NCBI GenBank assembly: GCA_965370265.1
Contig: CBDUSL010000002.1
Span: 1-41,439 of the forward strand
Direction of reading: 5' to 3'
Length of the DNA stretch: 41,439 bases
Origin: an uncultured bacterium
GTDB lineage: Bacteria > Patescibacteriota > Patescibacteriia > JAXHNJ01
Of the stretch, positions 9,490-35,981 are shown one piece after another. The position numbers and the translations under genes are program-made. Every line of letters begins with the position of its first letter. The first letter of the stretch is position 1. The notes under the pieces were generated by a model, which was not told the origin of the DNA, did no database searches, and saw only the letters and a list, made by a program, of their open reading frames with translations.

Positions 9490-9502
9490 GTACTGTTCTT
9501 TA

Positions 9503-9993: not shown

Positions 9994-10028
9994 TTTACAG
10001 GCAAGTTATTAAAAATTAAAAAATAAAT

Positions 10029-11024: not shown

Positions 11025-11624
11025 TTAGACTTTCTTTCTTTCTTTGAGAGCGCTCGATAAAGTTACTTCGTCCGCGTATTCAAGTTCAGTGCCCATAGCC
11101 AGACCTCTGGCCAGCTTAGTTATTTTGAGGGAAAAGGGAGAGAGAAGTTTTTTTATATGGAGAGAGGTTGATTCTCCTTCAATATCGGGATTTAAAGCGA
11201 GAATAATTTCTTTTATCCCGTCTTTTTTTACCCTCTCAAGAAGCGGGTTAATTTTTAATTTATCCGGAGTAACACCTTCAACAGGTTTTAGGAGGCCGTG
11301 AAGAACATGGTAGAGGCCGTTATATTCACCGGTTTTTTCGATGGAAATTACATCCTGGGGTTCTGCGACCACACAAATAGTTTTTTGATCGCGGCTTTTA
11401 GAACTGCAAAGGGAACAGGGATCGTTTTCTGAAAAATTTTGACACGCTTGGCATATTTTAATTTTATCCTTTAGATGTTCAATTGCAAGCCCAAGCTTTT
11501 CCAGTTCTTGTTTGGGTTGCTTAAGAAGATAAAAAACAAAACGCTCCGAAGTTTTCCCGCCAATTCCCGGAAGTTTGTTAAACTCAATTATAAGTTTTTC
11601 GATTGCTTCTGAATATTTGGGCAT
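11025..11624 (-). CDS. recR: recombination protein RecR
   Basis: ..LIIEFNKLPGIGGKTSERFVFYLL.., zinc finger CQACQNFSENDPCSLC, and Toprim ..VVAEPQDVISIE.. Confidence 0.95.
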   Translation of the reverse strand: MPKYSEAIEKLIIEFNKLPGIGGKTSERFVFYLLKQPKQELEKLGLAIEHLKDKIKICQACQNFSENDPCSLCSSKSRDQKTICVVAEPQDVISIEKTGEYNGLYHVLHGLLKPVEGVTPDKLKINPLLERVKKDGIKEIILALNPDIEGESTSLHIKKLLSPFSLKITKLARGLAMGTELEYADEVTLSSALKERKKV

Positions 11625-11627
11625 TTT

Positions 11628-11930
11628 TTACATTCCCGGCATATTAAAACCGCCCATACCTCCCATTCCCTGCATTCGGCGAGCCGCGGCCATCTGGGCT
11701 TTTTTAACAGTTTCGTTGAAACATTCTTTCAAGCCTTTTTCCAGTTCTTCTTTTTTATCGTTATCAAGGAGTTCCGGTTCAATATCGATACTTACAATTT
11801 TCTGGTTTCCGTCCATAACCATATTGATTTTGTGGTGCCAGTCACCGTTAACAGTCTCCTGGCCCAATTCATCCTGCAGTCTTTTAGCCTGATCTCTTAA
11901 TTCTTTAATCTGTTTAAGTTTGCTGAACAT
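11628..11930 (-). CDS. ybaB: YbaB/EbfC nucleoid-associated protein
   Basis: ..LKQIKELRDQAKRLQDEL..V.MDGNQKIVSIDIEPELL..D..ELE..L....N.....A matches YbaB, with an MGGMGG tail. Placed upstream of recR as usual. Confidence 0.9.
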   Translation of the reverse strand: MFSKLKQIKELRDQAKRLQDELGQETVNGDWHHKINMVMDGNQKIVSIDIEPELLDNDKKEELEKGLKECFNETVKKAQMAAARRMQGMGGMGGFNMPGM

Positions 11931-12026
11931 AAATAAGTAAGTTAATTATTAACACGTTTTTAAATTATATCATAATAAAAGTATAAAAAAAAGAGAATTA
12001 CACGTCCTCATTTTTAAAAAAGTTAA

Positions 12027-13409
12027 TTAAAACGGCGCTTCTTCTAAGTGTCTTTCCAGGTTTTTAAAGGAAACGCGGCCTTCGTCAAAGAATAATTCTA
12101 CTTGGCCCGTAGGTCCGTTTCTGTGTTTGGAGATTAGAATTTCTGCAATGCCTTTTTTATCTGTATCTTTTTTATACATATCTTCACGATAAATAAACAT
12201 AACCACATCAGCATCTTGCTCAATGGAACCTGACTCACGCAAGTCTGATAGTTTAGGAATAGGCGGAGTTCTTGCTTCAGTAGCTCGGGAAAGTTGAGAA
12301 AGACAAAGAACGGGAACATTAAGCTCCTTGGCAATACCTTTTAAGCCTCTGGTAATTTCTGCCACTTGTTGAACCCGGCTTTCTGCTGCTGTTCGGCCTT
12401 CCATTAGTTGAAGATAATCAATAACCAAAAGCCCAAGGCCATGTTCAGTTTGAAGACGCCTTGCCTTAGTTCTTATCTCCATGACGGAAGTGATAGAAGA
12501 GTCATCAATAAAAAGAGGAGCTTCGGCCAAAACGCCCATAGCATGTCCGATTCTGGGAAAATCATCATCTTCATCACTTTCCGAGAGTTTTCCGGTTCTG
12601 AGTTTCCAAAGATCAACCCCTGCTTCCGCACAAAGCATGCGATCGACCAGTTGCTCTTTTGACATTTCCAAAGAAAAGAAACCAACCGGTATTTTCGCTT
12701 TGCAAGCGACTTGCCTGGCTATATCAAGAGCAAGAGATGTTTTACCGAGAGAAGGCCTGGCCGCTAAGACAACCAAATCGCTTTTTTGAAGGCCAGCTAG
12801 TATATTATCCAGGTCTTTAAAGCCGGTGGGAATCCCGCGGAGTTTCCCTTTTTCTTTGTGAAGTTCGTCAATCCGGTCAAAGGCTTCCGTAAGAACATTT
12901 TTAATAGGGATGAACATGTGACGGAGGTGTTTTTGGGAGACATTAAATACAGCTTGTTCTGCCCGGTCTAAAACTTCATCAATTTCTTCAGTTTCAGCAA
13001 AGCCAAGTTTAGCAATTTCAGAAGAAACACTAATTAATCTCCTTAAAGTCGATTTTTTCTGGACTATATTGGCATAATTAACAACATTAGAAGCTGTTGG
13101 TACTTTGTTAGCTAGGTCGGCTAAGTAACCCTGACCGCCGATTGTTTTGAGTTGTTTTTTTTCTTTAAGTTTATTAGAAAGAGAAAGAATATCAATCGGT
13201 TCGCGTTTTTCATAAATTGCCAGCATTGCTTCAAAAATCATTTTATGAGTGTCTTTGTAAAAGTCATCCGGTTTAACAAGATCAGCAATTTTTACGATGG
13301 CGTCTTTATCAATCAGAAGAGAACCCAAAACAGATTGTTCTGCCTCATTATTTTGAGGGGGAATCTTGCCGATCTGGATCATTTCTTCTTTATTTTTTTC
13401 TTCAGCCAT
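12027..13409 (-). CDS. dnaB: replicative DNA helicase DnaB
   Basis: ..PPQNNEAEQSVLGSLL.., Walker A ARPSLGKTS, ..LVIDYLQLM.., ..LSQLSR..E.R.....LSDLRESGSIEQDADVV. Confidence 0.96.
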   Translation of the reverse strand: MAEEKNKEEMIQIGKIPPQNNEAEQSVLGSLLIDKDAIVKIADLVKPDDFYKDTHKMIFEAMLAIYEKREPIDILSLSNKLKEKKQLKTIGGQGYLADLANKVPTASNVVNYANIVQKKSTLRRLISVSSEIAKLGFAETEEIDEVLDRAEQAVFNVSQKHLRHMFIPIKNVLTEAFDRIDELHKEKGKLRGIPTGFKDLDNILAGLQKSDLVVLAARPSLGKTSLALDIARQVACKAKIPVGFFSLEMSKEQLVDRMLCAEAGVDLWKLRTGKLSESDEDDDFPRIGHAMGVLAEAPLFIDDSSITSVMEIRTKARRLQTEHGLGLLVIDYLQLMEGRTAAESRVQQVAEITRGLKGIAKELNVPVLCLSQLSRATEARTPPIPKLSDLRESGSIEQDADVVMFIYREDMYKKDTDKKGIAEILISKHRNGPTGQVELFFDEGRVSFKNLERHLEEAPF

Positions 13410-13940: not shown

Positions 13941-16652
13941 ATGATTGAAACAAAATGGTATAAATTAAGCGCCGAAGAAACCCTTAAAAAGCTTAATTCC
14001 TCTGTGCATGGCCTGACCAAGGAAGAGGTAGGAAAAAGAAAAAAAGAATACGGCAAAAATGAATTACCAAAGGAAAAGCAAATGCCTTGGCTGGCTTTGT
14101 TTTTTAATCAGTTTAAAAGTTCGTTGGTCTACATTTTGCTGTTTGCCACAGTAGTTAGCTTTCTTCTGGGTGATTATTTAGACGGATATATAATTTTAGC
14201 GGCCGTAATCGTTAATGTTGTTATCGGTTTTTTTCAGGAACGAAAAGCCCAGACAGCCCTAAAAAAACTCAAAGAAATAATTACTCTTCGGACTCTGGTT
14301 TTTCGCGGTGGTCAGGAACAACAGATTAATGTCGAAGAATTAGTGCCGGGAGATGTGATTGTCCTTTATCCGGGTGACAAAATTTCCGCTGATGCCAGGG
14401 TTATTTCCGCCAAAGACTTAAAAGTTAACGAATCAAGTCTGACCGGTGAAGCTTATCCGATAGATAAATTCAGCCAGAAAATCACCAAAGAAAAATCCTT
14501 GCCAGACCGACAAAATATGGTTTATATGGGAACCGTGGTTTCCGAGGGGAGCGCCAGGGCGGTGGTTGTTGATACCGGTCATACCACCGAATTTGGCCGA
14601 ATTGCCAAGTTGGTTAAAGAAACCGTACAGGACAAAACACCTCTTCAGGTCAAACTTGCCCGTTTTTCCCGTCAGCTGGCCGTGATTATTCTGGTTCTCA
14701 GCGGTCTTTTAATGGCGGTGGGTCTTATGATGGGCCGGGAGTTTATAGAAATGTTTACTACGGCGGTGGCCATAGCCGTTTCTGCCATTCCGGAAGGTCT
14801 TCTTATTGCGGTGACCCTTATTTTAACCGTTGGAATGCAGAGAATATTAAAGCAAAATGCCTTAGTCAGAAATTTATTATCAGCTGAGACTCTTGGCTCA
14901 ACAACCGTAATTTGTACCGACAAAACAGGTACTTTAACCGAAGGAAAAATGAATGTTTCCCAGATTATCACCCTGAACCATGATTTCTCCACGGAACATA
15001 ATCAAACTCCTATCAATAAAGAAAGCATAGAAAGCTTTATTTTCGCCCTCAAGATCGGTATGCTTTGTAACGACGCTTTTGTGGAAAATGAAGACGAGGA
15101 ATTAAAAAGCTGGAAAATAGCCGGGGGTAATCCCACGGAACGGGCTCTTTTGAATGCGGGGGTAAAGCTGGGCTTGAGAAAAAGTGAACTGGAAAAACAA
15201 TACAAAAGAATAGATGAAATTCCCTTTGATTCAAAAATAAAATATATGGCTACTCTTCACCATTACACCAAAGAACAAAACATGATTCTCGTCAAAGGAG
15301 CGCCGGAAAAAATACTAGCCATGTCAAAATATGTTGATGATAACGGGAAAAAAGAGAAAATGACTCCTCAGAAAAAAAAGAAGTTTGAAAAAATGTTTGA
15401 ACAGCTCTCAAACAAAGGTCTTCGCATCCTCGCTTTTTCCTACCAGAGAGTGAATAACGAATTAAGTTCTTTGGAAGAATTCGAAAAGGAAGAGGAAAAA
15501 AACTTGATTTTTGTCGGCTTTATGGCCTTGAAAGATCCTTTGCGCCCGGAAGCTAAAGAAACAATCAGACAAGTTCAACGGGCAGGTATTAAAGTAGTGA
15601 TGATTACCGGTGACCATAAGCTTACGGCCCAGTCTATTGCGGAAGAACTAGGCTTGCCGGCTAAAGCCGAAAATATTCTGGAAGGCGAGGAACTTCAAGA
15701 GATGACTGAACATGATTTAAAAAATAGAGTTAGAGATATCTCGGTTTACGCCCGAGTTTCACCGGAAGACAAATTAAGAATTGTTGACGCCTGGCAGGCT
15801 AATAATGAAGTCGTAGCGATGACCGGGGACGGGGTGAATGATGCCCCGGCTCTTAAAAGCGCTAATATTGGGATTGCTCTGGGATCCGGGACAGATGTGG
15901 CAAAGGGAACAGCCGGCTTAGTTCTTCTTGATGATAATTTTAAAACTATCGCGAAAGCAGTGGAGCAAGGCCGGGTTATCTTTGATAATATTAAAAAAGT
16001 AATTCTCTATCTTCTTTCAGACAGCTTTGCCGAGATTATTATCATTGGCGGGGGGCTTATCTTGGGCTATCCCTTACCTATGCTGGCGGCTCAGATTCTC
16101 TGGGTTAATTTAGTGGATGATACTTTTCCGGCCTTGGCTATGGGGGTGGAACCGGAAGAAAAAGAAATAATGAACAAAAAGCCGGAAGGTCTGGTAAGCA
16201 CTGTTTTAGATAAAGAAATGAAAGTTTTAATTGGCATAATTAGCTTGGTAAGCGGAATTTTTTGCCTGATTGTCTTCGCCTACTTTAATAATAAAACGAA
16301 TGACTTAGTCTTGGCCCGTTCAATTACTTTCGTTCTGTTGGGAATGATAACTCTTTTTTACGTTTTCAGTGTTCGAAGTCTAAGACATCCAATCTGGAAA
16401 AAAAATCTATTTCGTAATAAATTTCTCATACTTGCCGTGTTAGTAAGTGCCGGACTTCAAGCAGCCGCAGTTTATGTTCCTTTTCTCCAGCGCGTATTAA
16501 GAACAACTCCTTTAAGTCTTTATCATTGGATTTTTATTATTATTGTCTGTCTCATCATAATGATAATAATTGAAATTACTAAACATTTCTTTTTTGCCAA
16601 ACAAAAGAAAGAAGAAAATAAAATAGAGATAAATGAGCAAAAAACTAAATAG
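13941..16652 (+). CDS. P-type cation-transporting ATPase (type IIA, Ca2+-ATPase-like)
   Basis: - ..TGES/TGEA.. actuator region.
- Phosphorylation motif CTDKTGTLTEGKM.
- ..KGAPE.. and ..MITGDHKLTA..
- Hinge motif ..MTGDGVNDAPALK..
- The start at ATG 13941 (MIETKWYKLSAEETLKKL) is preferred over 13923. Confidence 0.93.
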   Translation: MIETKWYKLSAEETLKKLNSSVHGLTKEEVGKRKKEYGKNELPKEKQMPWLALFFNQFKSSLVYILLFATVVSFLLGDYLDGYIILAAVIVNVVIGFFQERKAQTALKKLKEIITLRTLVFRGGQEQQINVEELVPGDVIVLYPGDKISADARVISAKDLKVNESSLTGEAYPIDKFSQKITKEKSLPDRQNMVYMGTVVSEGSARAVVVDTGHTTEFGRIAKLVKETVQDKTPLQVKLARFSRQLAVIILVLSGLLMAVGLMMGREFIEMFTTAVAIAVSAIPEGLLIAVTLILTVGMQRILKQNALVRNLLSAETLGSTTVICTDKTGTLTEGKMNVSQIITLNHDFSTEHNQTPINKESIESFIFALKIGMLCNDAFVENEDEELKSWKIAGGNPTERALLNAGVKLGLRKSELEKQYKRIDEIPFDSKIKYMATLHHYTKEQNMILVKGAPEKILAMSKYVDDNGKKEKMTPQKKKKFEKMFEQLSNKGLRILAFSYQRVNNELSSLEEFEKEEEKNLIFVGFMALKDPLRPEAKETIRQVQRAGIKVVMITGDHKLTAQSIAEELGLPAKAENILEGEELQEMTEHDLKNRVRDISVYARVSPEDKLRIVDAWQANNEVVAMTGDGVNDAPALKSANIGIALGSGTDVAKGTAGLVLLDDNFKTIAKAVEQGRVIFDNIKKVILYLLSDSFAEIIIIGGGLILGYPLPMLAAQILWVNLVDDTFPALAMGVEPEEKEIMNKKPEGLVSTVLDKEMKVLIGIISLVSGIFCLIVFAYFNNKTNDLVLARSITFVLLGMITLFYVFSVRSLRHPIWKKNLFRNKFLILAVLVSAGLQAAAVYVPFLQRVLRTTPLSLYHWIFIIIVCLIIMIIIEITKHFFFAKQKKEENKIEINEQKTK

Positions 16653-17238
16653 AATATTATTTTACTTAAGCATTTTTTCATTAGTGGTTTTATTTTTTAT
16701 TGAAATATTTTCTAATTATGACACCACTACCAGACAGATAGCTCTTTCTTTAACCTGTGCAGCCGTCATTATTATCCTACTTATTATCTTTAGAGTAGTT
16801 AGATCAAAGCTAAATATTGAACTGCCTTTTTATGTTGCTTGGGTGGCGGCTGTAGGAGTTTGGTTTGACGCCCTTGGCAATTTTGCCGGTCTTTATGGAA
16901 AGATTATCTGGTGGGACAAACTTTCTCATGCCGTGGGTTCCGGGGCTATGGCCATTGCCTTGTTTGTTATTTTTTACGAATTGAATAAACAAGGAAAAAT
17001 AAAACTAGGCCGTTTTAATCTTTCTCTTTACATTGTTTCTTTGACTACTTTTCTTTCGGCTGTTTATGAAGTGACAGAATATCTGGGTGACCTATGGTCT
17101 GAATCTATGAGAGTTACTGATTTATATGATACCTGTGATGATTTGATGTGGAATATTATCGCGACTGTGATTATCGTCCTAATTCTGAACATAATAAAAA
17201 AGCCCGATAATAATTTACCGGGCGCGAATAGCTCTTAA
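16633..17238 (+). CDS. multi-pass membrane protein of unknown function
   Basis: 201 aa with about 5 hydrophobic segments. It overlaps the ATPase 3' end by 20 nt. No family recognised. Confidence 0.65.
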   Translation: MSKKLNRILFYLSIFSLVVLFFIEIFSNYDTTTRQIALSLTCAAVIIILLIIFRVVRSKLNIELPFYVAWVAAVGVWFDALGNFAGLYGKIIWWDKLSHAVGSGAMAIALFVIFYELNKQGKIKLGRFNLSLYIVSLTTFLSAVYEVTEYLGDLWSESMRVTDLYDTCDDLMWNIIATVIIVLILNIIKKPDNNLPGANSS

Positions 17239-17241
17239 GGC

Positions 17242-17400
17242 CTATTTGCCAATGGCGACGTATTCTGGTCCACATTCTTTGTGGACTTTTTCGTTGGCTT
17301 CGATCAGGCTTTTGGCCCTTACGTTTGACATTTTTGGGGGATTACAGTTTTCGCAGCCACCCCTTCTTTGAACCTCAAAATCCCTCTCTTTTTCCATCAT
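17242..17400 (-). CDS. orphan small protein, 52 aa (below the ORF-track cutoff)
   Basis: Minus strand: GAGGAGGG then ATGATGGAA.. The product is MMEKERDFEVQRRGGCENCNPPKMSNVRAKSLIEANEKVHKECGPEYVAIGK, with TAG at 17244-17242. It has its own promoter. No family recognised. Confidence 0.5.
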   Translation of the reverse strand: MMEKERDFEVQRRGGCENCNPPKMSNVRAKSLIEANEKVHKECGPEYVAIGK

Positions 17401-17432
17401 CCCTCCTCGATAAAATGAACCGCTATTTCCCC

Positions 17433-17462
17433 ATTTTAGCGGAAAAACGAGGTTGATGTCAA
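17433..17462 (-). promoter_or_regulatory. near-consensus promoter for the 52-aa ORF
   Basis: Minus strand: TTGACA (17462-17457), 18 nt spacer, TAAAAT (17438-17433). Confidence 0.5.
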
Positions 17463-17474
17463 TGTAGGATATTT

Positions 17475-17503
17475 TTGACTAAACTTCAAAAAATAGTTAT
17501 AAT
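17475..17503 (+). promoter_or_regulatory. sigma70-type promoter upstream of asnS
   Basis: TTGACT (17475-17480), 17 nt spacer, TATAAT (17498-17503). Confidence 0.6.
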
Positions 17504-17547
17504 AAAAACATTATAATTATGCTTTAGGGGGCGTTAAACCGCTTAAA

Positions 17548-18834
17548 ATGCCTTATATTTCAGAAATTCAAAAACATTTAGGAAAAGAAGTGCTTCTCAA
17601 GGGATGGATTTTCAATGTCCGCTCCTCTGGAAGCATCTTTTTTTTACAATTCAGGGATGGAACCGGAGAAATACAGGCAATTATCTCCAAAAATGATATT
17701 TCAGAGGAAATGTTTAAAAAATGTGAAAATTTGGGTATAGAATCTTCAGTAGAAATAAAAGGTCAGGTGGTTAAGGAAAAAAAATCACCCTCCGGCTTTG
17801 AACTTCATGTTACTGGCCTAAAAGTTATTCAAGCGGTTCAGAATTACCCAATTGCCAAGAAAGAACACGGTCCGGAATTTCTGATGAACAACCGCCATCT
17901 TTGGCTCCGTTCTTCCCGTCAAAGAGCTATTTTAAAGATCCGCGACGGGGTTATCTGGTCAGCAAGAAAGTTTTTTAAAGACGAAGGTTTTGTTTTAACT
18001 GATTCGCCGATTTTAACCCCTACTGCCTGTGAAGGAACGACTACTCTTTTTAAAACCAAATATTTTGAAGAAAATGCTTACCTGGCTCAGTCAGGCCAGC
18101 TTTATATTGAGGCAACGGCCGCTGCTTTAGGTAAGGTGTATGACTTTGGCCCTACTTTTCGGGCCGAGAAATCAAAAACCCGAAGGCACTTGATGGAATT
18201 TTGGATGCTGGATGCGGAAGCTGCTTTTGTAGAACATGAAGAAAATCTGGAAATTCAGGAAAATATGATCAGCGCCATTTTTAAATATATTTTAGAAAAT
18301 CATAAGAAAGATTTAGAAGTTTTAGAAAGAGACGTTAAACCGCTCGAAAAAATTACTGCTCCTTTTTATCGCAAGAAGTATGAAGAAGTAATAAAAGATT
18401 TAAATAAAAAAGGATTTAAAATGAAGTTCGGCGATGATTTTGGAGCCGAACATGAAACGGCTATTTCCGAAGATCTGGACAAACCAGTTTTTGTTACTCA
18501 CTGGCCAAAAGAAACCAAGCCATTTTATATGAAGCAGGATCCAAAAAATAAAAAATTAGTCTTGAATGCGGATTGTATTGCCCCGGAGGGCTTTGGTGAA
18601 ATTATTGGCGGGTCCCAACGGGAAGATGATTATGAAATCTTAAAAAAGAATATGGAAAAAGCCAAAATCCCCATTGATGACTACCAGTGGTATCTGGACT
18701 TAAGAAAATACGGCACTTTCCCTCATTCGGGATTTGGTTTGGGAATAGAAAGAACGGTGGCCTGGATTTCCGGACTTAAACATATTCGGGAAACTATTCC
18801 TTTTCCCAGAATGCTTAACCGATTAAGACCCTAA
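17548..18834 (+). CDS. asnS: asparagine--tRNA ligase
   Basis: Class IIb aminoacyl-tRNA synthetase. N-terminal OB fold, motif 2 FGPTFRAEKSKTRRHLMEFWMLDAE (AsnRS-type), and motif 3 GFGLGIERTVAWI. Confidence 0.92.
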   Translation: MPYISEIQKHLGKEVLLKGWIFNVRSSGSIFFLQFRDGTGEIQAIISKNDISEEMFKKCENLGIESSVEIKGQVVKEKKSPSGFELHVTGLKVIQAVQNYPIAKKEHGPEFLMNNRHLWLRSSRQRAILKIRDGVIWSARKFFKDEGFVLTDSPILTPTACEGTTTLFKTKYFEENAYLAQSGQLYIEATAAALGKVYDFGPTFRAEKSKTRRHLMEFWMLDAEAAFVEHEENLEIQENMISAIFKYILENHKKDLEVLERDVKPLEKITAPFYRKKYEEVIKDLNKKGFKMKFGDDFGAEHETAISEDLDKPVFVTHWPKETKPFYMKQDPKNKKLVLNADCIAPEGFGEIIGGSQREDDYEILKKNMEKAKIPIDDYQWYLDLRKYGTFPHSGFGLGIERTVAWISGLKHIRETIPFPRMLNRLRP

Positions 18835-18838
18835 AATT

Positions 18839-19456
18839 ATGGAAGAAGAAAATTTTAATCAACCAACAGAAAAAAGAAGAAGCAGTAAATTAATAATTCT
18901 TATAGTTATTTTGACTATTCTGGTAGCCGGGGCTTTTGGTTGGTACTTTTTTATTTTAGAAAAAAATTCTGAAAGTGATACGAGCAGTAGCCAGGATTTG
19001 AATACTAATTCAGAAGTAGAACAGTTAACATATACTTCTGAAGATTATGGTTATTTACTAAAATACCCTTCGGACTGGGAATACACTGATGATGCCGAAG
19101 GAAATCCGGCCATGTTTTACGACCCGACCGGTTTAGCCCAAATCATTGAGGGGACAGAGCTTTTACAGGGAACCAAAATGGAAATTTATGTTTCGGAAGA
19201 CATAGAAATGACTTTGGATGAGATGGTAAAAGAAAGGGATATAGAGTTTGAAATCTTGAGTGAGGAAGAAATTGAAGTGGGTAAGGTAAAGGCAATCCGA
19301 AGAATAGTCAATGGCATGGGTTATATGAATGTGACTTATGTCGTTAACGAAAATAATTTTTACTCTATTATTCAATATATTCCTCAGGAAAAATACCGGT
19401 CAATATACACTGGGTATTATGATTCTATCTTAGAGAGTTTTGAGTTTATTAATTAA
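18839..19456 (+). CDS. membrane-anchored surface protein 1 (TM helix, S/T/N linker, globular head)
   Basis: KLIILIVILTILVAGAFGWYFFIL anchor, then ..SESDTSSSQDLNTNSE... The head starts with TYTSEDYGYLLKYPSDW, a motif shared with the next two genes. It begins 4 nt after asnS. Confidence 0.75.
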   Translation: MEEENFNQPTEKRRSSKLIILIVILTILVAGAFGWYFFILEKNSESDTSSSQDLNTNSEVEQLTYTSEDYGYLLKYPSDWEYTDDAEGNPAMFYDPTGLAQIIEGTELLQGTKMEIYVSEDIEMTLDEMVKERDIEFEILSEEEIEVGKVKAIRRIVNGMGYMNVTYVVNENNFYSIIQYIPQEKYRSIYTGYYDSILESFEFIN

Positions 19457-19466
19457 TGATTACACT

Positions 19467-20219
19467 ATGAATCAAAAAGGACTCACCCAAATATTAACCC
19501 TCGGCTTGATTGCGGCCCTGCTTATTGCCGGAATTAGCTTTGGGTATGTGAAGTATTTTAAAAATGAAAATGAGAATGAAAGCAGCAACACTAATACAGT
19601 GGTTGAGGTTAACGAAAACGAAAATACGAATCTAAACACTAATTCTTCAGTCAACACTAACACTTCGGTTATAGAAACCGCCTGTTCAGACGGCTGGTCT
19701 ACTTATACTAATGAGAATTATGGTTATAGTGTAATGTATCCTCCGACGGGCACTCTAAGTTTTTTAGAAGAAAATTCTTTTAGTCTTTCCATGGAAGAGC
19801 AAGCGGCCGGGATAACTTTTGCCGAGAAGTTTGCCGAATACGGAACGAATTTATGCGTTTCTATTAAACTAAATGATTCTGCTTATGTCACGATTGCTGC
19901 GCCTGAAAATGCTGAGGCCGGGGTAATCTGCCATCGGTCAGGAGTTGGCGTTTATATTGAGAATATCGAGCGTACGGATTCGTTGATTATCGATGGAGCA
20001 AATTATACCGGCACGGGTGATATTTATATTTCTGAAGATCCCTCGACTGGTGTGGCCGGCACTACTCTTATGTATCATAACGAAACAAACCATGTCACTT
20101 TGAGTGACAGTACCAGTATCGAATACGGCTCTACTCCAGCCGAAGATATTTTATATACCGAATATGAATCGCTTCGTGACATTCTGATTTGTATTATGGA
20201 ATCATATAGCTCGACCTAA
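19467..20219 (+). CDS. MNQKG-leader surface protein 2 (TM, Asn/Thr stalk, head paralogous to protein 1)
   Basis: ATG 19467. MNQKGLTQILTLGLIAALLIAGISFGYVKYF, stalk ..NTNTVVEVNENENTNLNTNSSVNTNTS.., head TYTNENYGYSVMYPP.. Confidence 0.8.
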   Translation: MNQKGLTQILTLGLIAALLIAGISFGYVKYFKNENENESSNTNTVVEVNENENTNLNTNSSVNTNTSVIETACSDGWSTYTNENYGYSVMYPPTGTLSFLEENSFSLSMEEQAAGITFAEKFAEYGTNLCVSIKLNDSAYVTIAAPENAEAGVICHRSGVGVYIENIERTDSLIIDGANYTGTGDIYISEDPSTGVAGTTLMYHNETNHVTLSDSTSIEYGSTPAEDILYTEYESLRDILICIMESYSST

Positions 20220-20241
20220 TAAATTATTAAATAATAAATTT

Positions 20242-20988
20242 ATGAACCAAAAAGGCACAAAACAAATTCCTCTCTTAATCATTATCGCCGTGGTTTTGAT
20301 TGGGGCAATAGTCTATGGCTATTTCTTTTATAACAAAGACGAAGAGGCGTCAAAGAATACAAATACAGGGGAAAAGAATGCCAATATTACTGTAACCAAT
20401 ACAAATAAAAACGCAAATTTAAACACTAATGTCAGCGTGAATGAGAATGTAAATGTGAGTTCAAACACAAATGCTACGATTAACACGAATACCAATACCC
20501 CAATACCAGTTCCGGAGGTAGAAGAAATAGTGGTCGATAATACTTATACAAATAGTGAATGTGGGTATTCATTGACCTTGCCTGATGGCTGGTATGCTTA
20601 TGACCAAACGAACGGAGTATTATTCCTGATGTCGGCAACTTTGCCGTCAGTTGGTGCGACCGAAGGTTACGCCTACGGCACCCAGTTTTCTATCGCTTGC
20701 GGCGATATATCTGAGGCTGGCGCTATAACATCGACCGAGTATCTAGATGCGATGATCGGTAACCTTGATGCTTATGACAATCCGATCGTCAGGCAAAACG
20801 TGGTCCGCAACGGGCTAAATATGGTCAGGTTTACGATGTCGGCAGCCGGTGCCGACGGAACGATTCTTAATTATTATTATTTCAATGGCACTACCTATTA
20901 TGATCTGTCACATTTTTCGTATGACCAGGCAACAACAGCATCGCAGGATTTTGAAGCTGTCTTGAACACTTTTAGTATTACACCATAA
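20242..20988 (+). CDS. MNQKG-leader surface protein 3
   Basis: MNQKGTKQIPLLIIIAVVLIGAIVYGYFFY, long N/T stalk, head TYTNSECGYSLTLPDGW.. Confidence 0.8.
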   Translation: MNQKGTKQIPLLIIIAVVLIGAIVYGYFFYNKDEEASKNTNTGEKNANITVTNTNKNANLNTNVSVNENVNVSSNTNATINTNTNTPIPVPEVEEIVVDNTYTNSECGYSLTLPDGWYAYDQTNGVLFLMSATLPSVGATEGYAYGTQFSIACGDISEAGAITSTEYLDAMIGNLDAYDNPIVRQNVVRNGLNMVRFTMSAAGADGTILNYYYFNGTTYYDLSHFSYDQATTASQDFEAVLNTFSITP

Positions 20989-20992
20989 AAAT

Positions 20993-22093
20993 ATGAACCA
21001 AAAAGGATTTAATTTAATTCTGTTGATTATCATCATTGCTGTGGTTGTAATTGGAGGGGGAGCATACTTGTACTTTTATTATTTGCCGGACAAAGAAGTG
21101 AGTGAAAATACGAATACATTAGTAAATAATGCCAATGTTAATGATAATACTAATGCTAATTTGAACGTTAATACAAACGAAAATAATAATTTAAACACAG
21201 ATTTAAGTAGTAATTGTAATATTTCACTCCCTTCAGTGCTTGAGCCATTAACTACTTGGAATACGGAATGGCGCAGCGATCCAATATATTTGACTACTAT
21301 ACCTTCTTCTGTTAATGAAGCTCTGGAGGCTTGCGAAGAAAAAGAACATTTATCATCCCGTAATTATTGTTTTTTAGAAATTGCGACCGCTTTTCGTAAT
21401 CCCTTATATTGCGAAAAAATAAATCAAAATGTACTTGAAGAAGAAACAGGGAGTAATACTAACGGTTATCAAGTTGAAGATATAGCTTATGAGGTAGGTT
21501 TAACTACTCCCCAAGAAGACGCAATTGAATGTATTGAGAATTTTATGAAAGAGTATGGTATTTATGACTGCCAGATTCATGAAAGCGATCAGTTTAAAGA
21601 CTATTGTTATTATAATGCGGCCGTTTCAGTATATTTGCCTGAAGAAAGAAATCTAAACTGCTGCCTAATTAAAGACACATCTCTGAATGAGAGGTGTGTA
21701 GAAGTGGCAGAGGGCTGGACTGAACTTGAGGAGCAATTTGGTGAAATAGAAGAAGATTTAAACAGTCTGGAAGTAGCCTATAATTATATTATAAAGCTTA
21801 CTTGTTATGCTAAAGATCACCCGGAAATATTAAATAAATTTCCAGCCGGAGATATCAGGGAAGAAATAAGAGAAGATTCAGAAAATTATACTGATTGTGA
21901 GGTATTAAGTTCTGAAGAAATTGAGAAATTATTAACTTACGTAAATACTGACTCAGACAATGACGGTCTCAATCTATTATTGGAAAGTTTATATCTTATT
22001 GATGACACGAATACCGATACAGACGGCGACGGCTATGATGATTTAACGGAAGTCATTAATGGCTATAATCCAAACGGAGAAGGTGAATTATAG
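20993..22093 (+). CDS. MNQKG-leader surface protein 4: Cys-rich head with C-terminal thrombospondin-type-3-like Ca-binding repeats
   Basis: MNQKGFNLILLIIIIAVVVIGGGAYLYFYY and an N-rich stalk. The head carries many cysteines. The C-terminus has DSDNDGLNLLLE and DTDGDGYDDLTE (DxDxDG loops). Confidence 0.8.
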   Translation: MNQKGFNLILLIIIIAVVVIGGGAYLYFYYLPDKEVSENTNTLVNNANVNDNTNANLNVNTNENNNLNTDLSSNCNISLPSVLEPLTTWNTEWRSDPIYLTTIPSSVNEALEACEEKEHLSSRNYCFLEIATAFRNPLYCEKINQNVLEEETGSNTNGYQVEDIAYEVGLTTPQEDAIECIENFMKEYGIYDCQIHESDQFKDYCYYNAAVSVYLPEERNLNCCLIKDTSLNERCVEVAEGWTELEEQFGEIEEDLNSLEVAYNYIIKLTCYAKDHPEILNKFPAGDIREEIREDSENYTDCEVLSSEEIEKLLTYVNTDSDNDGLNLLLESLYLIDDTNTDTDGDGYDDLTEVINGYNPNGEGEL

Positions 22094-22108
22094 ATTAATA
22101 TAAATTCT

Positions 22109-23401
22109 ATGAATCAAAAAGGAATAACAAATATATTAGGATTAGGAATTGTATTAGCGATTGTAATTCTTGGATTTTCTTTGGGGTATGTTTATTTAAA
22201 ACCAGAAGAAAAGACAAATAGCAATGTAAATATAAAAATAAATACTAATACCACAACTAATACAAATTCAGCGTCCTTAGTGCCAGTCGATACGGTGGCT
22301 GAAGCCCATACAAATTTTGGCTTAAATATTTTAAAAGAACTTTATAATAGTGATAAAACCGAAAATATATTTATTTCCCCGACCAGCATTGCTCTGGCTC
22401 TTTCCATGGTTTATAATGGGAGCGACGGAGAAACAAAAACTGAAATAGCCGAAGCCCTTGAGGTCTCCGGTATTTCTCTTGAAGAACTAAATCAACAGAG
22501 CCAAAGCCTTATTACTCAATATTCAAATATTGATCCGAAAGTTGAAATAGCGATTGCCAACTCAATCTGGACTCGTGAAGGTTTTAACCCAAAATCAAGT
22601 TTTATAAACCTTTTAGAAAACTGGTATCTTGCCCAAGTTAAGGCCCTTGATTTTGACAAAGAAGAAGCGGTTGATGAAATTAATGAATGGGTAAAAAATA
22701 ATACCCAGGAAAAAATCGAAAGTATTGTTGATTACCCTATTTCCTCAGATGTAATAATGTATCTTATCAACGCCACATATTTTAAAGGAACTTGGACAAA
22801 TGAATTTGACCCGGAAGATAATAAAGAACGTATCTTTACTAATGGCGATAGCTCACAGGAAGATCACATTATGATGTATCGTCACGACAATTTTTCATAT
22901 CTGGAAAATGACGACTTTCAGGCCATTAGTCTGACTTATGGAGAAAACGAACGCTTAAGTATGTATGTTTTTTTACCAAAAGGTGAACTTGAATTATTTA
23001 TGGCTAAATTGAATTCCGAAAATTGGAATAATTGGTTAACAAATTTTCAAAGCGAAAAAGGGACCATATATTTGCCAAAGTTAAAACTTGAGTACGAAAA
23101 AAGTCTTAATGAATATTTAAAAGCGCTGGGCATGAATTCAGCTTTTAAAGAATCGGCAGATTTTTCAGAGATTGCCCCTAATATTTTCATCAGTGATGTA
23201 AAACATAAAACATTTGTTGATGTAAATGAAGAAGGGACTGAAGCAGCCGCAGTGACGAGTGTTGAAACGGAACTTACTTCGGTAGGAAATCCAGAAGAGA
23301 CTTTTTATATGGAAGTTAATAAACCCTATTTCTTTGTTATTCGGGACAACGATAATGGAGAAAATCTTTTTACCGGAATAATAAATAATCCAGAAATTTA
23401 A
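22109..23401 (+). CDS. MNQKG-leader, membrane-anchored serpin-family protein
   Basis: MNQKGITNILGLGIVLAIVILGFSLGYVYL plus stalk, then the serpin core: ..NIFISPTSIALALSMVYNGSDGETKTEI.., ..YFKGTW.., hinge EEGTEAAAVT, ..NKPYFFVIRD.. Confidence 0.9.
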   Translation: MNQKGITNILGLGIVLAIVILGFSLGYVYLKPEEKTNSNVNIKINTNTTTNTNSASLVPVDTVAEAHTNFGLNILKELYNSDKTENIFISPTSIALALSMVYNGSDGETKTEIAEALEVSGISLEELNQQSQSLITQYSNIDPKVEIAIANSIWTREGFNPKSSFINLLENWYLAQVKALDFDKEEAVDEINEWVKNNTQEKIESIVDYPISSDVIMYLINATYFKGTWTNEFDPEDNKERIFTNGDSSQEDHIMMYRHDNFSYLENDDFQAISLTYGENERLSMYVFLPKGELELFMAKLNSENWNNWLTNFQSEKGTIYLPKLKLEYEKSLNEYLKALGMNSAFKESADFSEIAPNIFISDVKHKTFVDVNEEGTEAAAVTSVETELTSVGNPEETFYMEVNKPYFFVIRDNDNGENLFTGIINNPEI

Positions 23402-23468
23402 AAAACATATAAAAAAAATCCTTTCTACTTTCCAATTCACGGAATAAGATTATAAATTATTAATTATT

Positions 23469-24857
23469 ATGGACAGAATTTTTACGACCGAAACATTAAA
23501 TCAAATAGACAAAAAAGTTAAATTAGCCGGATTTGTTCAGAGTATCCGGAAAATGGGCTCAATTGTTTTTGTTGATTTACGCGATAAAGAAGCGATAATC
23601 CAGGTCGTTTTTGACAAAGGTTTTAAGGAAGCAAAAGACTTAAAACCAGAATATGTAATTGAACTGGAGGGTAAGATAGTCAAGCGAAGCGAAAATAATA
23701 TTAATCCAGAAATTGCTACTGGCGAAGTAGAGGTGCAGGCGACCTCGCTCAAAGTATTATCCAGGGCCGAAACTCCGCCTTTTGAAATCGAAAACGAAGA
23801 CCGGCAGGCAAATGAAGAATTGCGGCTCAAGTATCGTTATCTTGATTTACGCCATGAACGAATGAAAAAGAATATTATTTTAAGACACAAGGTAACTAAG
23901 TTTATTCGCGATTGGTTGACCACCAGCGGTTTTACGGAAATCGAAACTCCGCTTTTAACCAAAGGAACACCGGAAGGGGCCAGGGAATACATTGTTCCTT
24001 CCAGGAATTTTCCAGGCGAGTTTTATGTTCTTCCCCAGAGTCCGCAACAGTTTAAACAACTACTGATGGTGGCCGGCTTTGAAAAATATTTCCAAATTGC
24101 CCGGTGCTTTCGGGATGAAGATGCCAGGGGGGACCGGCAAGCTGAATTTACCCAACTTGACTTGGAGATGTCTTATGTAGAACAGGAGGATATTTTGAAG
24201 CTGACCGAGGAATTATTTATTGACCTGGTAAAAAATGTTTGTCCAGATAAAAAAATCTCAAAACTTCCTTTTCCGCGGCTCACTTATGACGAAGCAATTA
24301 AAAAATATAAGAGTGACAAGCCTGATTTAAGAAAGGATAAAAAAGATAATAATGAACTGGCCTTTTGCTGGATTATTGATCCCCCTCTTTTTGAAAAATC
24401 AGAAACTCAAAATAAGTATGTTTCCGTCCATCACCCTTTTACAGCGCCAAAGGAAAGCGACGAAAACAAGCTGGATAAAGACCCTCTTAAAGTAAAAGGG
24501 CTCTCTTACGATTTGGTTTTAAACGGTTTTGAAATCGGGGGTGGGAGCATAAGAATCCATGACCAAAAAATACAACGGATGATATTTGAGATTTTGGGCC
24601 TTTCTGATGAAGAAATTAAAAAAAGGTTCGGCCATATTCTGGAAGCCTTTAAATACGGAGTTCCTCCGCACGGAGGTATCGCTCCTGGTATTGACCGGAT
24701 TGTAATGATCTTGGCCGGAGAACCCAATATCCGGGAAGTGATTGCTTTTCCTAAAACTGCTGAAGCCAGGGATTTGACAATGGGGGCACCGTCAGAACTG
24801 CCGGAAGAACAGTTAGGAGAAGCTAATATAAAAATTAATAAAAATGAAAATCTCTAA
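23469..24857 (+). CDS. aspS: aspartate--tRNA ligase, bacterial type but lacking the GAD insertion domain (462 aa)
   Basis: OB fold at the N-terminus, QSPQQFKQLLMVAGFEKYFQIARCFRDEDARGDRQAEFTQLDLEMSY, ..SDKPDLR joined after about 12 aa to ..FCWIIDPPLFE.., HHPFTAP, and GGGSIRIH..PPHGGIAPGIDR. Confidence 0.93.
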   Translation: MDRIFTTETLNQIDKKVKLAGFVQSIRKMGSIVFVDLRDKEAIIQVVFDKGFKEAKDLKPEYVIELEGKIVKRSENNINPEIATGEVEVQATSLKVLSRAETPPFEIENEDRQANEELRLKYRYLDLRHERMKKNIILRHKVTKFIRDWLTTSGFTEIETPLLTKGTPEGAREYIVPSRNFPGEFYVLPQSPQQFKQLLMVAGFEKYFQIARCFRDEDARGDRQAEFTQLDLEMSYVEQEDILKLTEELFIDLVKNVCPDKKISKLPFPRLTYDEAIKKYKSDKPDLRKDKKDNNELAFCWIIDPPLFEKSETQNKYVSVHHPFTAPKESDENKLDKDPLKVKGLSYDLVLNGFEIGGGSIRIHDQKIQRMIFEILGLSDEEIKKRFGHILEAFKYGVPPHGGIAPGIDRIVMILAGEPNIREVIAFPKTAEARDLTMGAPSELPEEQLGEANIKINKNENL

Positions 24858-25158
24858 ACTCCAGAAATTTATTTTAGTTACGGCCTATACCAATCGAGCC
24901 AAAAAAATCACCCGTCGGGGCTTCGACAAATTTTATAAAGACCAGAAGAAAAAACCGAAAAAAGATGATGTAAAAAATATTATTACCAAATCTATTGAAA
25001 GGCTGATTGACAAGGAAATGCTTATCGGTTACGGACGCCGAACCCCTCATAAATGGTTTATTAACGACATCCAGTTAACGGTTAAAGGAAGAAAGACGGC
25101 AAAAAAAATGCTTGGGGAACAGCAAAAACTACCTTTTAAAAAAATTAATAAAAAATAA
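24844..25158 (+). CDS. small basic protein, possible winged-helix DNA-binding protein
   Basis: 104 aa, ..IERLIDKEMLIGYGRRTPHKWFINDIQLTVKGRKTAKKM.. resembles a MarR-like wing. It overlaps the aspS end by 14 nt. The assignment is tentative. Confidence 0.55.
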   Translation: MKISKLQKFILVTAYTNRAKKITRRGFDKFYKDQKKKPKKDDVKNIITKSIERLIDKEMLIGYGRRTPHKWFINDIQLTVKGRKTAKKMLGEQQKLPFKKINKK

Positions 25159-25160
25159 TT

Positions 25161-25715
25161 ATGACTGACCATTTTATCTCTCCCATAAGCGAGGAGGAAA
25201 AGGAGGAGAAGGCTAAGCTAGAGCAAAAAAAGAAAAAGAAACCAAAAAATGAATTTTCTGCCTGGGGCATTTTCTTTGGAATATTGCTATTCGCCGTTTT
25301 ATTAACCATGTGGGAGCTGGGATTTAGTGATTTGCCTAAGTTTTTCAGTCCTTATTATGATGTCTGCCGGAATGCCAGCCCAATTATTATCCAGCAGCAG
25401 TGTAACATGAAGCAGTTCGACATAGTTAACCTCCTTTTACATATTAGTCTTCTGATTCCTTTGTTGCTTGTGGCGGTATCTGTTTCTTACGCTAATTCCG
25501 GCAAAAAAATGCAAAGTCATAATAAAATAGTTCTAGTCGCTTATTTATTTTCCGTTTTAATTCTCTCTATTCATTTATTTATTGAATTTGCCAGATATCT
25601 TTTTGAATATTATCGAGAGGTTGGCGATTATGTGATTCTAACCTGTATTGCCCTTGCTTTTATTGGTTTTATTATTTATCTTCAAAAAAGGTTTAATCGG
25701 CCTAAAGAAGTTTAA
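25161..25715 (+). CDS. membrane protein of unknown function (about 4 TM)
   Basis: Charged N-terminus followed by four hydrophobic segments. No family recognised. Confidence 0.6.
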   Translation: MTDHFISPISEEEKEEKAKLEQKKKKKPKNEFSAWGIFFGILLFAVLLTMWELGFSDLPKFFSPYYDVCRNASPIIIQQQCNMKQFDIVNLLLHISLLIPLLLVAVSVSYANSGKKMQSHNKIVLVAYLFSVLILSIHLFIEFARYLFEYYREVGDYVILTCIALAFIGFIIYLQKRFNRPKEV

Positions 25716-31287: not shown

Positions 31288-31365
31288 GCCGCCTTCGTCT
31301 AGCCCGGTCCAGGACGTATCCCTCTCACGGATGAAACACGGGTTCAAATCCCGTAGGCGGTACCA
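31288..31365 (+). tRNA. tRNA-Glu (anticodon CUC), CCA encoded
   Basis: GCCGCCT..GTCT-AGCCCGGTCCA-GGAC..TATCC-CTCTCAC-GGATG..ACGGG-TTCAAAT-CCCGT-AGGCGGT-ACCA. It closely parallels bacterial tRNA-Glu. Confidence 0.92.
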
Positions 31366-31551: not shown

Positions 31552-32109
31552 ATGAAAAAATACATAATTTATGGCGGTATAATTGTGGTTGTAGTAGGAG
31601 GTTTTTTGTCAGTATTTTATTTTTACCCGGATCTTTTTAATTTTGGAGATGGGGATGAGGAAGCGATAAGCAGTAATGATAATGCAAACACAAATACGAC
31701 TAATATAAACACCAGCCCAAGTATTAATCTTAATCTAAGCGTAAGAACAGGTGAAACAGAAGTGAATAAATCAATTACTTATCAGGACATTATTTTTAAG
31801 GTAATGACCGCTGACAAAAAAGATAACTTTGAAAGTTTAACTGCAGAAGAAGACAAAACTTTTATAATTTTATATCTCGATAAAATTAACGAAAAAACAG
31901 CCCCTGAGATTTTGCCTGTGGTTAAAAACGATGTAAATCTTAAAAGTAATGAAAATGAGTATTCTGTTAAAACAATGAATATCGCCGGAGCTAACTCGGC
32001 TGATTATGCGACCAGTTATTTTATTTTTGAAGTGAATAAAGATGAGGGCGAATTTACCCTCAATTTTGGGGCAGGGGATAGTTTACAGACCATGGAGATA
32101 GGTTTATAA
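31552..32109 (+). CDS. membrane-anchored protein with N/T stalk and beta-rich head (DUF4352-like, tentative)
   Basis: ATG 31552. MKKYIIYGGIIVVVVGGFLSVFYF, stalk ..SSNDNANTNTTNINTSPSINLNLS.., head ..KTFIILYLDKINEK..YFIFEV.. Confidence 0.72.
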   Translation: MKKYIIYGGIIVVVVGGFLSVFYFYPDLFNFGDGDEEAISSNDNANTNTTNINTSPSINLNLSVRTGETEVNKSITYQDIIFKVMTADKKDNFESLTAEEDKTFIILYLDKINEKTAPEILPVVKNDVNLKSNENEYSVKTMNIAGANSADYATSYFIFEVNKDEGEFTLNFGAGDSLQTMEIGL

Positions 32110-35213: not shown

Positions 35214-35981
35214 ATGAGAAGAAAAACAATTACTATATTAATAATAATCATTATCGGTTGCGGACTTTGGTTTAGCCGTCACCGGATTTTGACTGTCTGG
35301 GATTCCTGGATTGCTGAGCCTATTCCTGATGTTACGACTAAGGATGAAATAATAAAAAACGAAAATATAAATGAAAATACTAATACGGTTGTAATAGAGG
35401 AGCCGGTTATTCTGCCCGAAGAATTTAATTTGGCTGTTCCCTTTACTACTCAGTCACCTTTTGCCGAGTGGACAGAGCAGGATAATGAGTCCTGTGAAGA
35501 AGCAGCCATTTTAATTGCCCATTACTATTATCAGGATAAGACTTTTACAAAAGAGACAGCCAAACAAGAACTGCAAACCATTGTTGATTTTGAAATGGAT
35601 TATTTTGGCTTCTATAAAGATACAACGGCCGAAGAAACAGCGGAATTGGCCCGAGAAATATGGGGCTACGAAAAAGTAGAAGTAATCTATGATTTTACCA
35701 TGGAAGACATCAAGACCCATATATACCAGGGTCGACCCGTAATTTTGCCTACCGCTGGAAGAATGTTGGCCAATCCAAATTTCCGGGCGCCGGGACCTCT
35801 TTACCATATGCTGGTGGTAAAAGGCTGGAACACAGAAAATATTATTACTAATGATCCAGGCACCCGAAAAGGAGAAAATTATCAGTATTCACCTGATGTT
35901 TTGTTTGAAGCTATTCATGACTGGAATGACGGAGATCCGGCCAACGGGCAGAAAGCAATTATCGTAATTTATCCGAATTAA
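35214..35981 (+). CDS. membrane-anchored C39-like (Peptidase_C39_2 / YvpB-like) domain protein
   Basis: TM helix plus ..NENINENTNTVV.. stalk, then ..PFTTQSPFAEWTEQDNESCEEAAILIAHYY.., ..HMLVVKGW..NDPG.. Confidence 0.78.
   Translation: MRRKTITILIIIIIGCGLWFSRHRILTVWDSWIAEPIPDVTTKDEIIKNENINENTNTVVIEEPVILPEEFNLAVPFTTQSPFAEWTEQDNESCEEAAILIAHYYYQDKTFTKETAKQELQTIVDFEMDYFGFYKDTTAEETAELAREIWGYEKVEVIYDFTMEDIKTHIYQGRPVILPTAGRMLANPNFRAPGPLYHMLVVKGWNTENIITNDPGTRKGENYQYSPDVLFEAIHDWNDGDPANGQKAIIVIYPN

Follow-up and report, generated by a model that had tools for sequence, protein, structure and literature searches.

Bitopic (type II) surface proteins of the signal-anchor type in bacteria with a single membrane, such as FliL, the TagU/LCP proteins and proteins with an N-terminus like that of YidC, have a short positively charged N-terminus and one uncleaved hydrophobic helix, from which a flexible linker leads to an extracytoplasmic domain. 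Type IV prepilins and other proteins with class III signals start with a leader of 5-6 residues ending in Q-K-G, followed by a hydrophobic residue at position +1 (mostly Phe) and a hydrophobic segment of about 20 residues; their conserved N-termini are combined with variable C-terminal domains and their genes are found in tight tandem arrays. The classic type IVa prepilin leader is ...QKG|FTLIE, and there are also archaeal non-pilin proteins with class III signals as well as minor pilins that lack the glutamate at position 5, such as GspK and ComGG. Here, we describe an array of five genes, p1 to p5, with similarities to both of these systems. The array is located between the genes for asparaginyl-tRNA synthetase (asnS) and aspartyl-tRNA synthetase (aspS) in a stretch of 41,439 nucleotides (nt) from an uncultured member of the Patescibacteria (GenBank assembly GCA_965370265.1, contig CBDUSL010000002.1), hereafter called the window. 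The window is AT-rich (~37% GC) and Kerfeldbacteria-like, and its other genes include those for ribosomal proteins, secY, dnaB, glycolysis and dnaK.

The interpretation that we favor, and consider reasonably probable, is that the array represents a surface-display island of a kind typical for the lineage, which is placed at an ancestrally tight junction between asnS and aspS, encodes signal-anchored proteins and most likely shares the promoter of asnS in a common transcript. The predicted products share the overall design of the FliL, TagU and YidC-type anchors, but differ from these in that the x-N-Q-K-G leader and the helix are conserved over more than 100 protein clusters with unrelated heads, and in that the spacer contains alternating asparagines. 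Such conservation of leader and helix is unusual for a passive anchor.

The leader, helix and spacer of the array proteins

The genes p2 to p5 start with the same 14 nt, which encode MNQKG, in agreement with a first-pass annotation of the window made from the sequence alone. The sequence ATGAAYCAAAAAGG is present in exactly four copies in the window, solely at the starts of these genes, and 6 matches were found when up to two mismatches were allowed, as compared to 2.1 expected. Since the DNA identity of p2 to p5 falls to 61-75% past the first 14 nt and the MNQKG codons contain synonymous differences (AAT/AAC, GGA/GGC), the identity of the start can be attributed to five conserved residues in combination with an AT-rich codon choice. 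The annotation had proposed that a leader, a transmembrane (TM) helix and a stalk are shared within the array, which holds for p2 to p5. It does not hold for p1, which has a different and longer leader (MEEENFNQPTEKRRSSK, 17 residues, rich in Lys and Arg and without Gly) and only NTN instead of NTNT.

Each of the five proteins has a strongly hydrophobic window of 19 residues (Kyte-Doolittle 2.2-2.9) within its first 30-36 residues, and this segment forms a single helix in the AlphaFold models of p3 and p4 (Table 1). In p2 to p5, the helix ends with the aromatic motif G-Y-x-Y/F and is followed by an acidic patch and an Asn/Thr spacer that contains NTNT. The same design is seen in p6 and p7, two separate genes in the window for which the presence of the TM helix and the NTNT stalk had been suggested before and is evident from their N-terminal sequences. 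The spacers are 27-67 residues long and of low complexity, with alternating asparagines in the form of 4-12 N-x-N pairs per stalk. In p3, residues 30-97 have a predicted local distance difference test (pLDDT) score below 50 and are predicted to be disordered. N-glycosylation sequons were ruled out as the logic of the stalk, as only 0-4 of them are present per stalk and the pattern is one of alternating Asn. In a GC-richer relative the linker is rich in Ser, Thr and Pro, which indicates that the content of Asn and Thr follows the base composition.

No A-x-A signal peptidase site was found after the helix, where the G-Y-x-Y motif and the acidic patch are located. As judged from hydropathy and the modelled helix, the proteins have the hallmarks of a signal anchor, namely a single N-terminal helix, one or more basic residues before it and no AxA after it. 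Likewise, the weak NCBIfam matches obtained for the N-termini are to classic N-in anchors (FliL, the YidC N-terminus, RodZ and TagU). The first 42-57 residues of the array proteins are 33-62% identical while the heads differ, and the DNA repeat families of the start region and the spacer motif N-x-N-x-N-L-N-T-N follow in the same order in p2 to p5.

We hypothesize that the products of p1 to p5 are bitopic, signal-anchored proteins with the N-terminus inside and the C-terminus outside. The five-residue MNQKG leader would then stay in the cytoplasm, and the helix of about 25 residues, which ends in an aromatic belt, would hold the protein in the membrane. The acidic patch and the disordered spacer with alternating Asn would carry the folded head through the wall.

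A helix followed by an N-x-N linker and a domain is widespread in the Patescibacteria, where it is also found behind Pro-rich cytoplasmic N-termini of 70-100 residues. The combination of a TM helix and an N/T stalk is generic to this lineage. A predicted TM helix is present in 76 of the 106 families enriched in the Candidate Phyla Radiation (CPR) (Méheust et al., PMC6744442).

The leader and helix of the array are also found far beyond the window. An exhaustive search of 1.84 billion representative proteins with a 37-position profile of the leader and the helix yielded 109 clusters at E <= 1e-3, with lengths of 48-697 amino acids (aa) and the motif x-N-Q-K-G|F/I/L, nearly all of which were aligned from residue 1. 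A word-indexed search with an alignment of the 46-55 aa N-terminal module gave nothing at E <= 10. PsbP_2 was matched by 19 of the 111 module proteins; beta-propeller, BNR, BON or signal-peptidase domains are present in a few, p5 is the sole serpin and the majority are without a Pfam domain. Directly behind the spacer, many module proteins contain small Cys-containing modules of two recurrent types, neither of which is annotated, with the consensus C..AG.P.MESYPRQC..G.TF.EV (L012_12286, L016_13026 and P0066) and AK.CPDGS.V.R.GP.CEF..CP (P0107, P0133, P0142 and L005_14189).

The same helix subtype is found on many unrelated heads. When the mature helices were grouped at identities of at least 60%, one group contained 39 proteins with helices of the FTHWVIVILIS type and 17 head clusters, and the group with the p2-type helix contained 9 proteins and 5 head clusters. 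In the neighbors L005_11959 and L005_13260, 82% of the first 56 aa are shared but the heads are unrelated, and the p2 helix recurs at about 87% identity in L004_13913 ahead of a different head. The helix-spacer design is also combined with other leaders in the same arrays, as in p1, L004_12840 and genes in L005, where these are long, Lys-rich and without Gly. Judging from these patterns, the leader, helix and spacer constitute a homologous module that has been reused across heads over evolution. This reuse is old, with repeats that are 61-82% identical. N/T linkers are also present between domains (L004_11532 and L004_13913), which fits with recombination within low-complexity DNA as the route of shuffling, and the module was probably joined to its varied heads by duplication and recombination in the linker DNA.

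Three kinds of head domains

The heads in the array are of three kinds, rather than five: PsbP-like heads in p1 to p3, a Cys-rich head with TSP3-type repeats in p4 and a serpin in p5. Of the earlier suggestion that the head domains are unrelated, it remains that p4 and p5 are not PsbP-like, so that the five heads do not have one fold in common, whereas p1 to p3 share a single fold. For p1, this follows from a match to PF18933 PsbP_2 at 30.5 bits (cut-off 27) that covers profile positions 2-184 of 184. The heads of p2 (11.2 bits, E = 0.38) and p3 (12.8 bits, E = 0.12) are below this cut-off and too divergent for the Pfam model. The p3 homologs P0062 and P0063 are annotated with PF18933.

The p3 head was modelled by AlphaFold with a pLDDT of ~85-95, and the model has the Mog1/PsbP-like alpha/beta sandwich fold. 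In Foldseek searches it matched PsbP (1v2b, 2vu4, 4rth), CyanoP, Apa from M. tuberculosis, LpqN, MTC28, Tsi3, EagT6/SciW and DcrB with E-values from 7e-6 to 1e-3; the matches to PsbP and to CyanoP (2xb3) had a probability of 1.0 and E-values of 4e-5 to 3e-4. It superposes on PsbP, CyanoP, Apa and LpqN. In hhalign comparisons to the p3 family, the probability was 82% for the p1 head and 56% (P = 1e-4) for the p2 head, as compared to at most 1% for the p4 and p6 heads (1% for p6), which served as controls. Thus, the shared fold of p1 to p3 is based on the model for p3 and on hhalign to the p3 family for p1 and p2.

The motif TYT..YGY..YP, which had been noted in the first three proteins, corresponds to the first strand of the PsbP_2-type domain. 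It recurs, often in tandem, in proteins of the relatives as W-x-T-Y-T-N-x-x-Y-G-Y-S...YP..W ... ILSTFKF, and the first-strand motif in the form W-x-T-Y-x-N-x-x-Y-G-[YF]-S...YP..W and an ending ...F-x-F likewise recur in relatives. Furthermore, the p2 head and the second head of L004_11532 are 61% identical. Unlike the PsbP proteins of this superfamily, the array proteins have no photosystem context. We suggest that the three PsbP/Mog1-like heads may serve as binding domains.

The description of p4 as a Cys-rich protein ending in DxDxDG loops proved accurate, and its C-terminus probably corresponds to TSP3_bac repeats. The repeats contain NTDSDNDGLN and DTDGDGYDDLTE, and about 50 further proteins, annotated as PF18884 TSP3_bac, match p4 through the repeats alone; p4 itself scores 11.6 bits against PF18884 (cut-off 25). 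A single full-length homolog was identified, P0002, which is 57% identical and likewise starts with MNQKG. The model of p4, built from three aligned sequences, is all-alpha and poor, with a mean pLDDT of 49.6. Other Patescibacteria proteins with a TM helix, a linker and TSP3_bac (P0004 from Kerfeldbacteria, P0013, P0014 and P0034) are similar to p4 in having a helix, an N-x-N linker and a DxDxDG C-terminus, but have Pro-rich cytoplasmic N-termini of 70-100 residues instead of MNQKG and lack the Cys-rich helical domain. The p4 head would thus consist of a Cys-rich helical domain and presumably calcium-binding TSP3 repeats.

That p5 is a serpin, as annotated, is clear from a full-length match to PF00079 (E = 3e-108, profile positions 2-370 of 370). 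Its closest solved structure is miropin (5ncs, 2e-66), a surface-associated serpin of Tannerella forsythia with which it has in common an identical hinge, EEGTEAAAVT, and a tether to the cell envelope. Miropin is tethered as a lipoprotein. In p5 an N-terminal helix and an Asn/Thr spacer take the place of the lipid anchor, and the reactive-loop residues are ETELTS, as compared to EMVKTS in miropin. The small residues at P15-P9 of the hinge (G-T-E-A-A-A-V) are of the inhibitory type, which allows for loop insertion. On the basis of its sequence, p5 is predicted to be a miropin-like serpin of inhibitory type, which could neutralize serine proteases at the cell surface.

The asnS-aspS junction and the surrounding window

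The interval between asnS and aspS contains five open reading frames (ORFs), all on the forward strand, which are separated by gaps of 4, 10, 22, 4 and 15 nt starting from the end of asnS; the distance from p5 to aspS is 67 nt. The 4.6-kb array is identical on three independently assembled metagenome contigs, and independent gene calls on these gave the same coordinates, which confirms the tight packing of same-strand ORFs recognized in the first-pass annotation. The coordinates are listed in Table 1.

Table 1. Positions and main characteristics of the array genes, their borders and two separate anchored proteins in the window.
Feature	Position	Strand	Description
Promoter-like site	17475..17503	+	TTGACT-17-TATAAT, ~45 nt upstream of asnS; 11/12 consensus matches, best site in 16600-25200
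asnS	17548..18834	+	Asparaginyl-tRNA synthetase, upstream island boundary; tRNA-synt_2 9e-75 and OB anticodon-binding domain; 51-81% identical orthologs in 80 Patescibacteria loci
p1	18839..19456	+	205 aa; long leader without MNQKG, helix ~aa 18-40, short S/D/N-rich linker, PsbP_2 domain
p2	19467..20219	+	250 aa; MNQKG leader 19467-19481, helix aa 6-30, N-x-N spacer aa 31-72 (19557-19682), divergent PsbP-like head aa 73-250
p3	20242..20988	+	248 aa; MNQKG leader, helix aa 8-30, spacer aa 31-97 (20332-20532) with N-x-N and predicted disorder, head aa 98-248 with modelled PsbP/Mog1 fold
p4	20993..22093	+	366 aa; MNQKG leader, helix aa 3-30, N-x-N spacer aa 32-74, Cys-rich mainly helical head aa 75-316, two TSP3-type DxDxDG repeats aa 317-366 (21941-22090)
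p5	22109..23401	+	430 aa; MNQKG leader, helix aa 6-31, spacer aa 32-58, serpin domain aa 66-428; hinge and reactive-centre loop EEGTEAAAVTSVETELTSVGNPEE at ~23228-23299
aspS	23469..24857	+	Aspartyl-tRNA synthetase, downstream island boundary; tRNA-synt_2 2e-120; followed by the conserved string g104-ybaK-scpA-scpB
p6	31552..32109	+	Separate anchored protein; MKKY leader (not MNQKG), helix, N/T spacer with NTNT, head without assigned family
p7	35214..35981	+	Separate anchored protein; MRRK leader (not MNQKG), helix with lipobox-like IIIGC, short NTNT spacer, Peptidase_C39_2 (PF13529, 1.5e-9)

A consensus scan of positions 16600-25200 identified only one near-consensus promoter-like site, located upstream of asnS, which is likely to be the promoter for asnS and the array. 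Within the array, the scan found no more promoters or terminators than in shuffled sequence, in line with the previous observation that the array has no promoter of its own. The absence of recognizable Shine-Dalgarno (SD) sequences noted at the same time is real but not specific to the array: even a 4-mer match was found in only 6 of 48 window genes, and the absence is genome-wide. The genes p1 to p5 are likely to be co-transcribed with asnS and translationally coupled.

To compare the junction among relatives, GTDB genomes were scanned with asparaginyl-tRNA synthetase (AsnRS), which gave 80 Patescibacteria loci, the closest at 80-81% identity and including one complete Kerfeldbacteria chromosome. 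The order asnS-[gap]-aspS-g104-ybaK-scpA is kept in 55 non-identical related loci; in 13 of these the gap is below 100 nt, and in the other 42 it measures 0.2-6.6 kb. The window, L004 and L005 differ in what the gap contains, even at AsnRS identities of about 80%. Anchored proteins, usually small, are encoded in the gaps of the Kerfeldbacteria-like relatives; they belong to a Cys-rich family of 130-145 aa or a PsbP_2-like family of ~200 aa, or are larger proteins in which N/T spacers are combined with other heads or with one to four PsbP_2 domains. Given this variation in size and content, the junction in which the array was found in this comparison of synteny represents a variable surface-protein island. 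Its gene content turns over quickly between relatives, and the island is thus both old and fast-evolving.

Several other observations were made at these loci. The first gene after asnS in L009, L012, L016, L020, L022, L029 and L083 belongs to the Cys-rich family of 130-145 aa, which is absent from the window and has no Pfam match; its N-terminus of the type [KR]G|hydrophobic, for example DNRG|ITAYSIMLLALLVL...NG, recalls that of minor pilins and PilX-type proteins. Other strings of housekeeping genes are interrupted in a similar way in relatives. In L086, PsbP-like genes with [KR]G leaders are wedged between split transketolase genes, and fragments of bAvd and a reverse transcriptase, resembling a diversity-generating retroelement, are located ~9 kb upstream of these genes (positions 1-1074). 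In L085 (Kerfeldbacteria MKparc4, positions 11256-13160), two near-identical paralogs with a cleavable Sec signal (…IVNA|ATSH) are found beside the p3 homolog P0059, which means that both types of export signals coexist in one cluster; an integrase gene and a GIY-YIG gene are located directly upstream of the paralogs.

Elsewhere in the window, p6 follows a gene for tRNA-Glu (31288-31365), and its head has no similarity to Pfam, NCBIfam or PsbP-family proteins. The gene for p7 adjoins that of another envelope protein (33287-35173), which has an N-terminal helix and three Big_5 Ig-like domains; Peptidase_C39_2 is present in both. A segment at 9490-10028 has a higher GC content (0.43), and the sole ORF in it, on the minus strand (9503-9862), is doubtful; the segment is flanked by a gene resembling glycosyl-phosphate transferases and the next gene, and has no Rfam match at the gathering threshold. 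The Rfam and tRNA scans of the window yielded two tRNAs only, neither of which has a bearing on the array.

Alternative explanations and biological implications

Some points weigh against the interpretation of the array as a co-transcribed set of plain signal anchors. We infer the orientation and exposure of the array proteins, co-transcription is deduced from gene spacing and the consensus promoter scan, and neither Foldseek with the low-confidence model nor PDB sequence searches gave a meaningful structural match to the Cys-rich head of p4. Furthermore, a plain anchor leaves unexplained the conservation of Gly(-1), Gln(-3) and Lys(-2), and a helix that is at least 60% identical over 39 clusters with unrelated heads. 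The strong conservation of both leader and helix suggests that the N-terminus is recognized by something.

One hypothesis is that x-N-Q-K-G|F/I/L is a class III (prepilin-type) signal, which would be cut after Gly5 by PilD, and that a pilus-like machinery or a dedicated sorter handles the N-terminus. We regard this as possible, albeit rather unlikely. Among the 111 module proteins, Gly is found at -1 in 110, Lys or Arg at -2 in 93, Gln at -3 in 83 and Asn at -4 in 90, with a leader of 5-6 residues and nearly always F/I/L/Y/V at +1, as would be expected of such a signal; these counts are partly circular, since the matches were selected with that profile. Independent p3 homologs retain the Gly while the other leader residues vary (MNNQRG, MNKPKG, MTTRQG). 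Of the anchored ORFs in 1.34 Mb of related loci, 25 of the 52 that are located in asnS-aspS gaps have [KR]G directly before the helix, as compared to 3 of 172 outside (Fisher 1e-15, for loci that are not phylogenetically independent). The N-terminal helix is unusually conserved in combination with variable heads, as in pilins, weak matches to the class III signal domain TIGR04205 were obtained for four module proteins (best E = 0.005), and many CPR bacteria have PilD (PMC6744442). In addition, related genomes contain canonical pilins and a PilD-like gene: type IV pilin genes (KG|FTLIELL) are situated between fba and gap in L006 (20277-20786) and L008 (17379-18427), and a pilin adjoins a PilD-like gene in L048 (15067-16603). 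In the window, fba and gap are adjacent with no pilin in between.

The prepilin hypothesis is weakened by the absence of an acidic residue at +5 in all of 110 module proteins, where the classic leader has Glu (p2 to p5 have L, P, L and L), and by the lack of matches to PF07963 N_methyl, TIGR02532 or any bacterial pilin model in Pfam and NCBIfam searches with the window proteins and the 111 module proteins. Matches to the archaeal Pilin_N at E = 0.08-0.4 were taken as noise. Unlike pilins, in which the globular domain is packed against the helix in the shape of a "lollipop," the p3 model has ~67 disordered residues between helix and head, and the residues of p3 at +1/+2 are Thr-Lys. The window is devoid of pilus genes, three close relatives with a p2-type helix have no such Gly (KKT|LAP, KKS|LAP, QKS|LAP), and array neighbors with long, Gly-less leaders have the same downstream design. 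For these reasons, we rank the plain signal anchor first and processing by PilD second. Yet another idea, tentative and in our judgment also rather doubtful, is that the Glu5-less, prepilin-like leader and the helix form an undescribed sorting signal of the Kerfeldbacteria-like Patescibacteria, by which PilD or a dedicated machine would process non-pilin cargo, such as PsbP-like binders, a serpin, beta-propellers and Cys-rich modules, and position it at the cell surface. It would then be a bacterial counterpart of the archaeal exoproteins with class III signals. The literature searched yielded nothing specific on the motif, on class III signals in Patescibacteria or on serpins of CPR bacteria.

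We also considered the possibility that the array originated by plain tandem duplication of one ancestral anchored gene, with a leader that was inherited or kept for initiation without SD sequences by an A-rich 5' coding region, and with neither modular exchange nor a functional signal. The adjacent location of p1 to p3, which have one fold, and the constant order of the start and spacer repeat families in p2 to p5 would agree with this, and in a genome largely devoid of SD sequences the first codons may matter for initiation. We nevertheless consider it improbable, because the heads of p4 and p5 are not PsbP-like and the same helix subtype is found on many unrelated heads within and between genomes. 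Moreover, the motif is conserved at the protein level across genomes of differing composition while synonymous sites differ in the window, and a preference for A-rich codons does not account for the GGN codon. Still less credible, and in our view very improbable, is an active cassette or variation system, in which programmed recombination, gene conversion or a retroelement would swap heads or modules within a cell line. Although junction content differs between genomes with 80% AsnRS identity, the low-complexity linker DNA provides microhomology and L086 has bAvd and a reverse transcriptase near such genes, the repeats in the array are short (at most 51 nt) and 61-82% identical, no recombinase, reverse transcriptase or inverted-repeat switch is present in the window and the array is the same in three independent metagenome assemblies. 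Recent recombination or cassettes in the window were ruled out by the lack of long or high-identity repeats. Of the modular cassette system envisaged in the first-pass annotation, the reuse of a module with different heads has thus been retained, and active recombination has not.

Returning to the interpretation of the array as an island of signal-anchored proteins, several of its components are ordinary and of kinds already known, including the anchored display design, the N/T stalk, the absence of SD sequences and the PsbP-like, TSP3 and serpin domains. New are the conserved x-N-Q-K-G leader and helix, which more than 100 protein clusters have in common despite their diverse heads, the recognition of the asnS-aspS junction as an island of variable surface-protein genes, and the presence in a Patescibacteria genome of a serpin that resembles miropin and is tethered by a helix. 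No part of the biology of the Patescibacteria, which live attached to other microbes, is less well understood than their surface proteins. A role for the array proteins in host contact would be plausible, with three PsbP-like binders and a wall-spanning tethered serpin as candidate host-interface proteins, the latter of which could blunt proteases of hosts or competitors.

The profile of the leader and the helix provides a search handle for more than 100 otherwise unannotated families of surface proteins in metagenomes, and the asnS-aspS junction, together with similar gaps in housekeeping operons, provides a genomic address of surface-gene turnover. If the leader is not a processing signal, the result is a useful, ordinary description of anchored proteins that are typical of the lineage. 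If it is, it would represent a new route for export and sorting in a major bacterial radiation.

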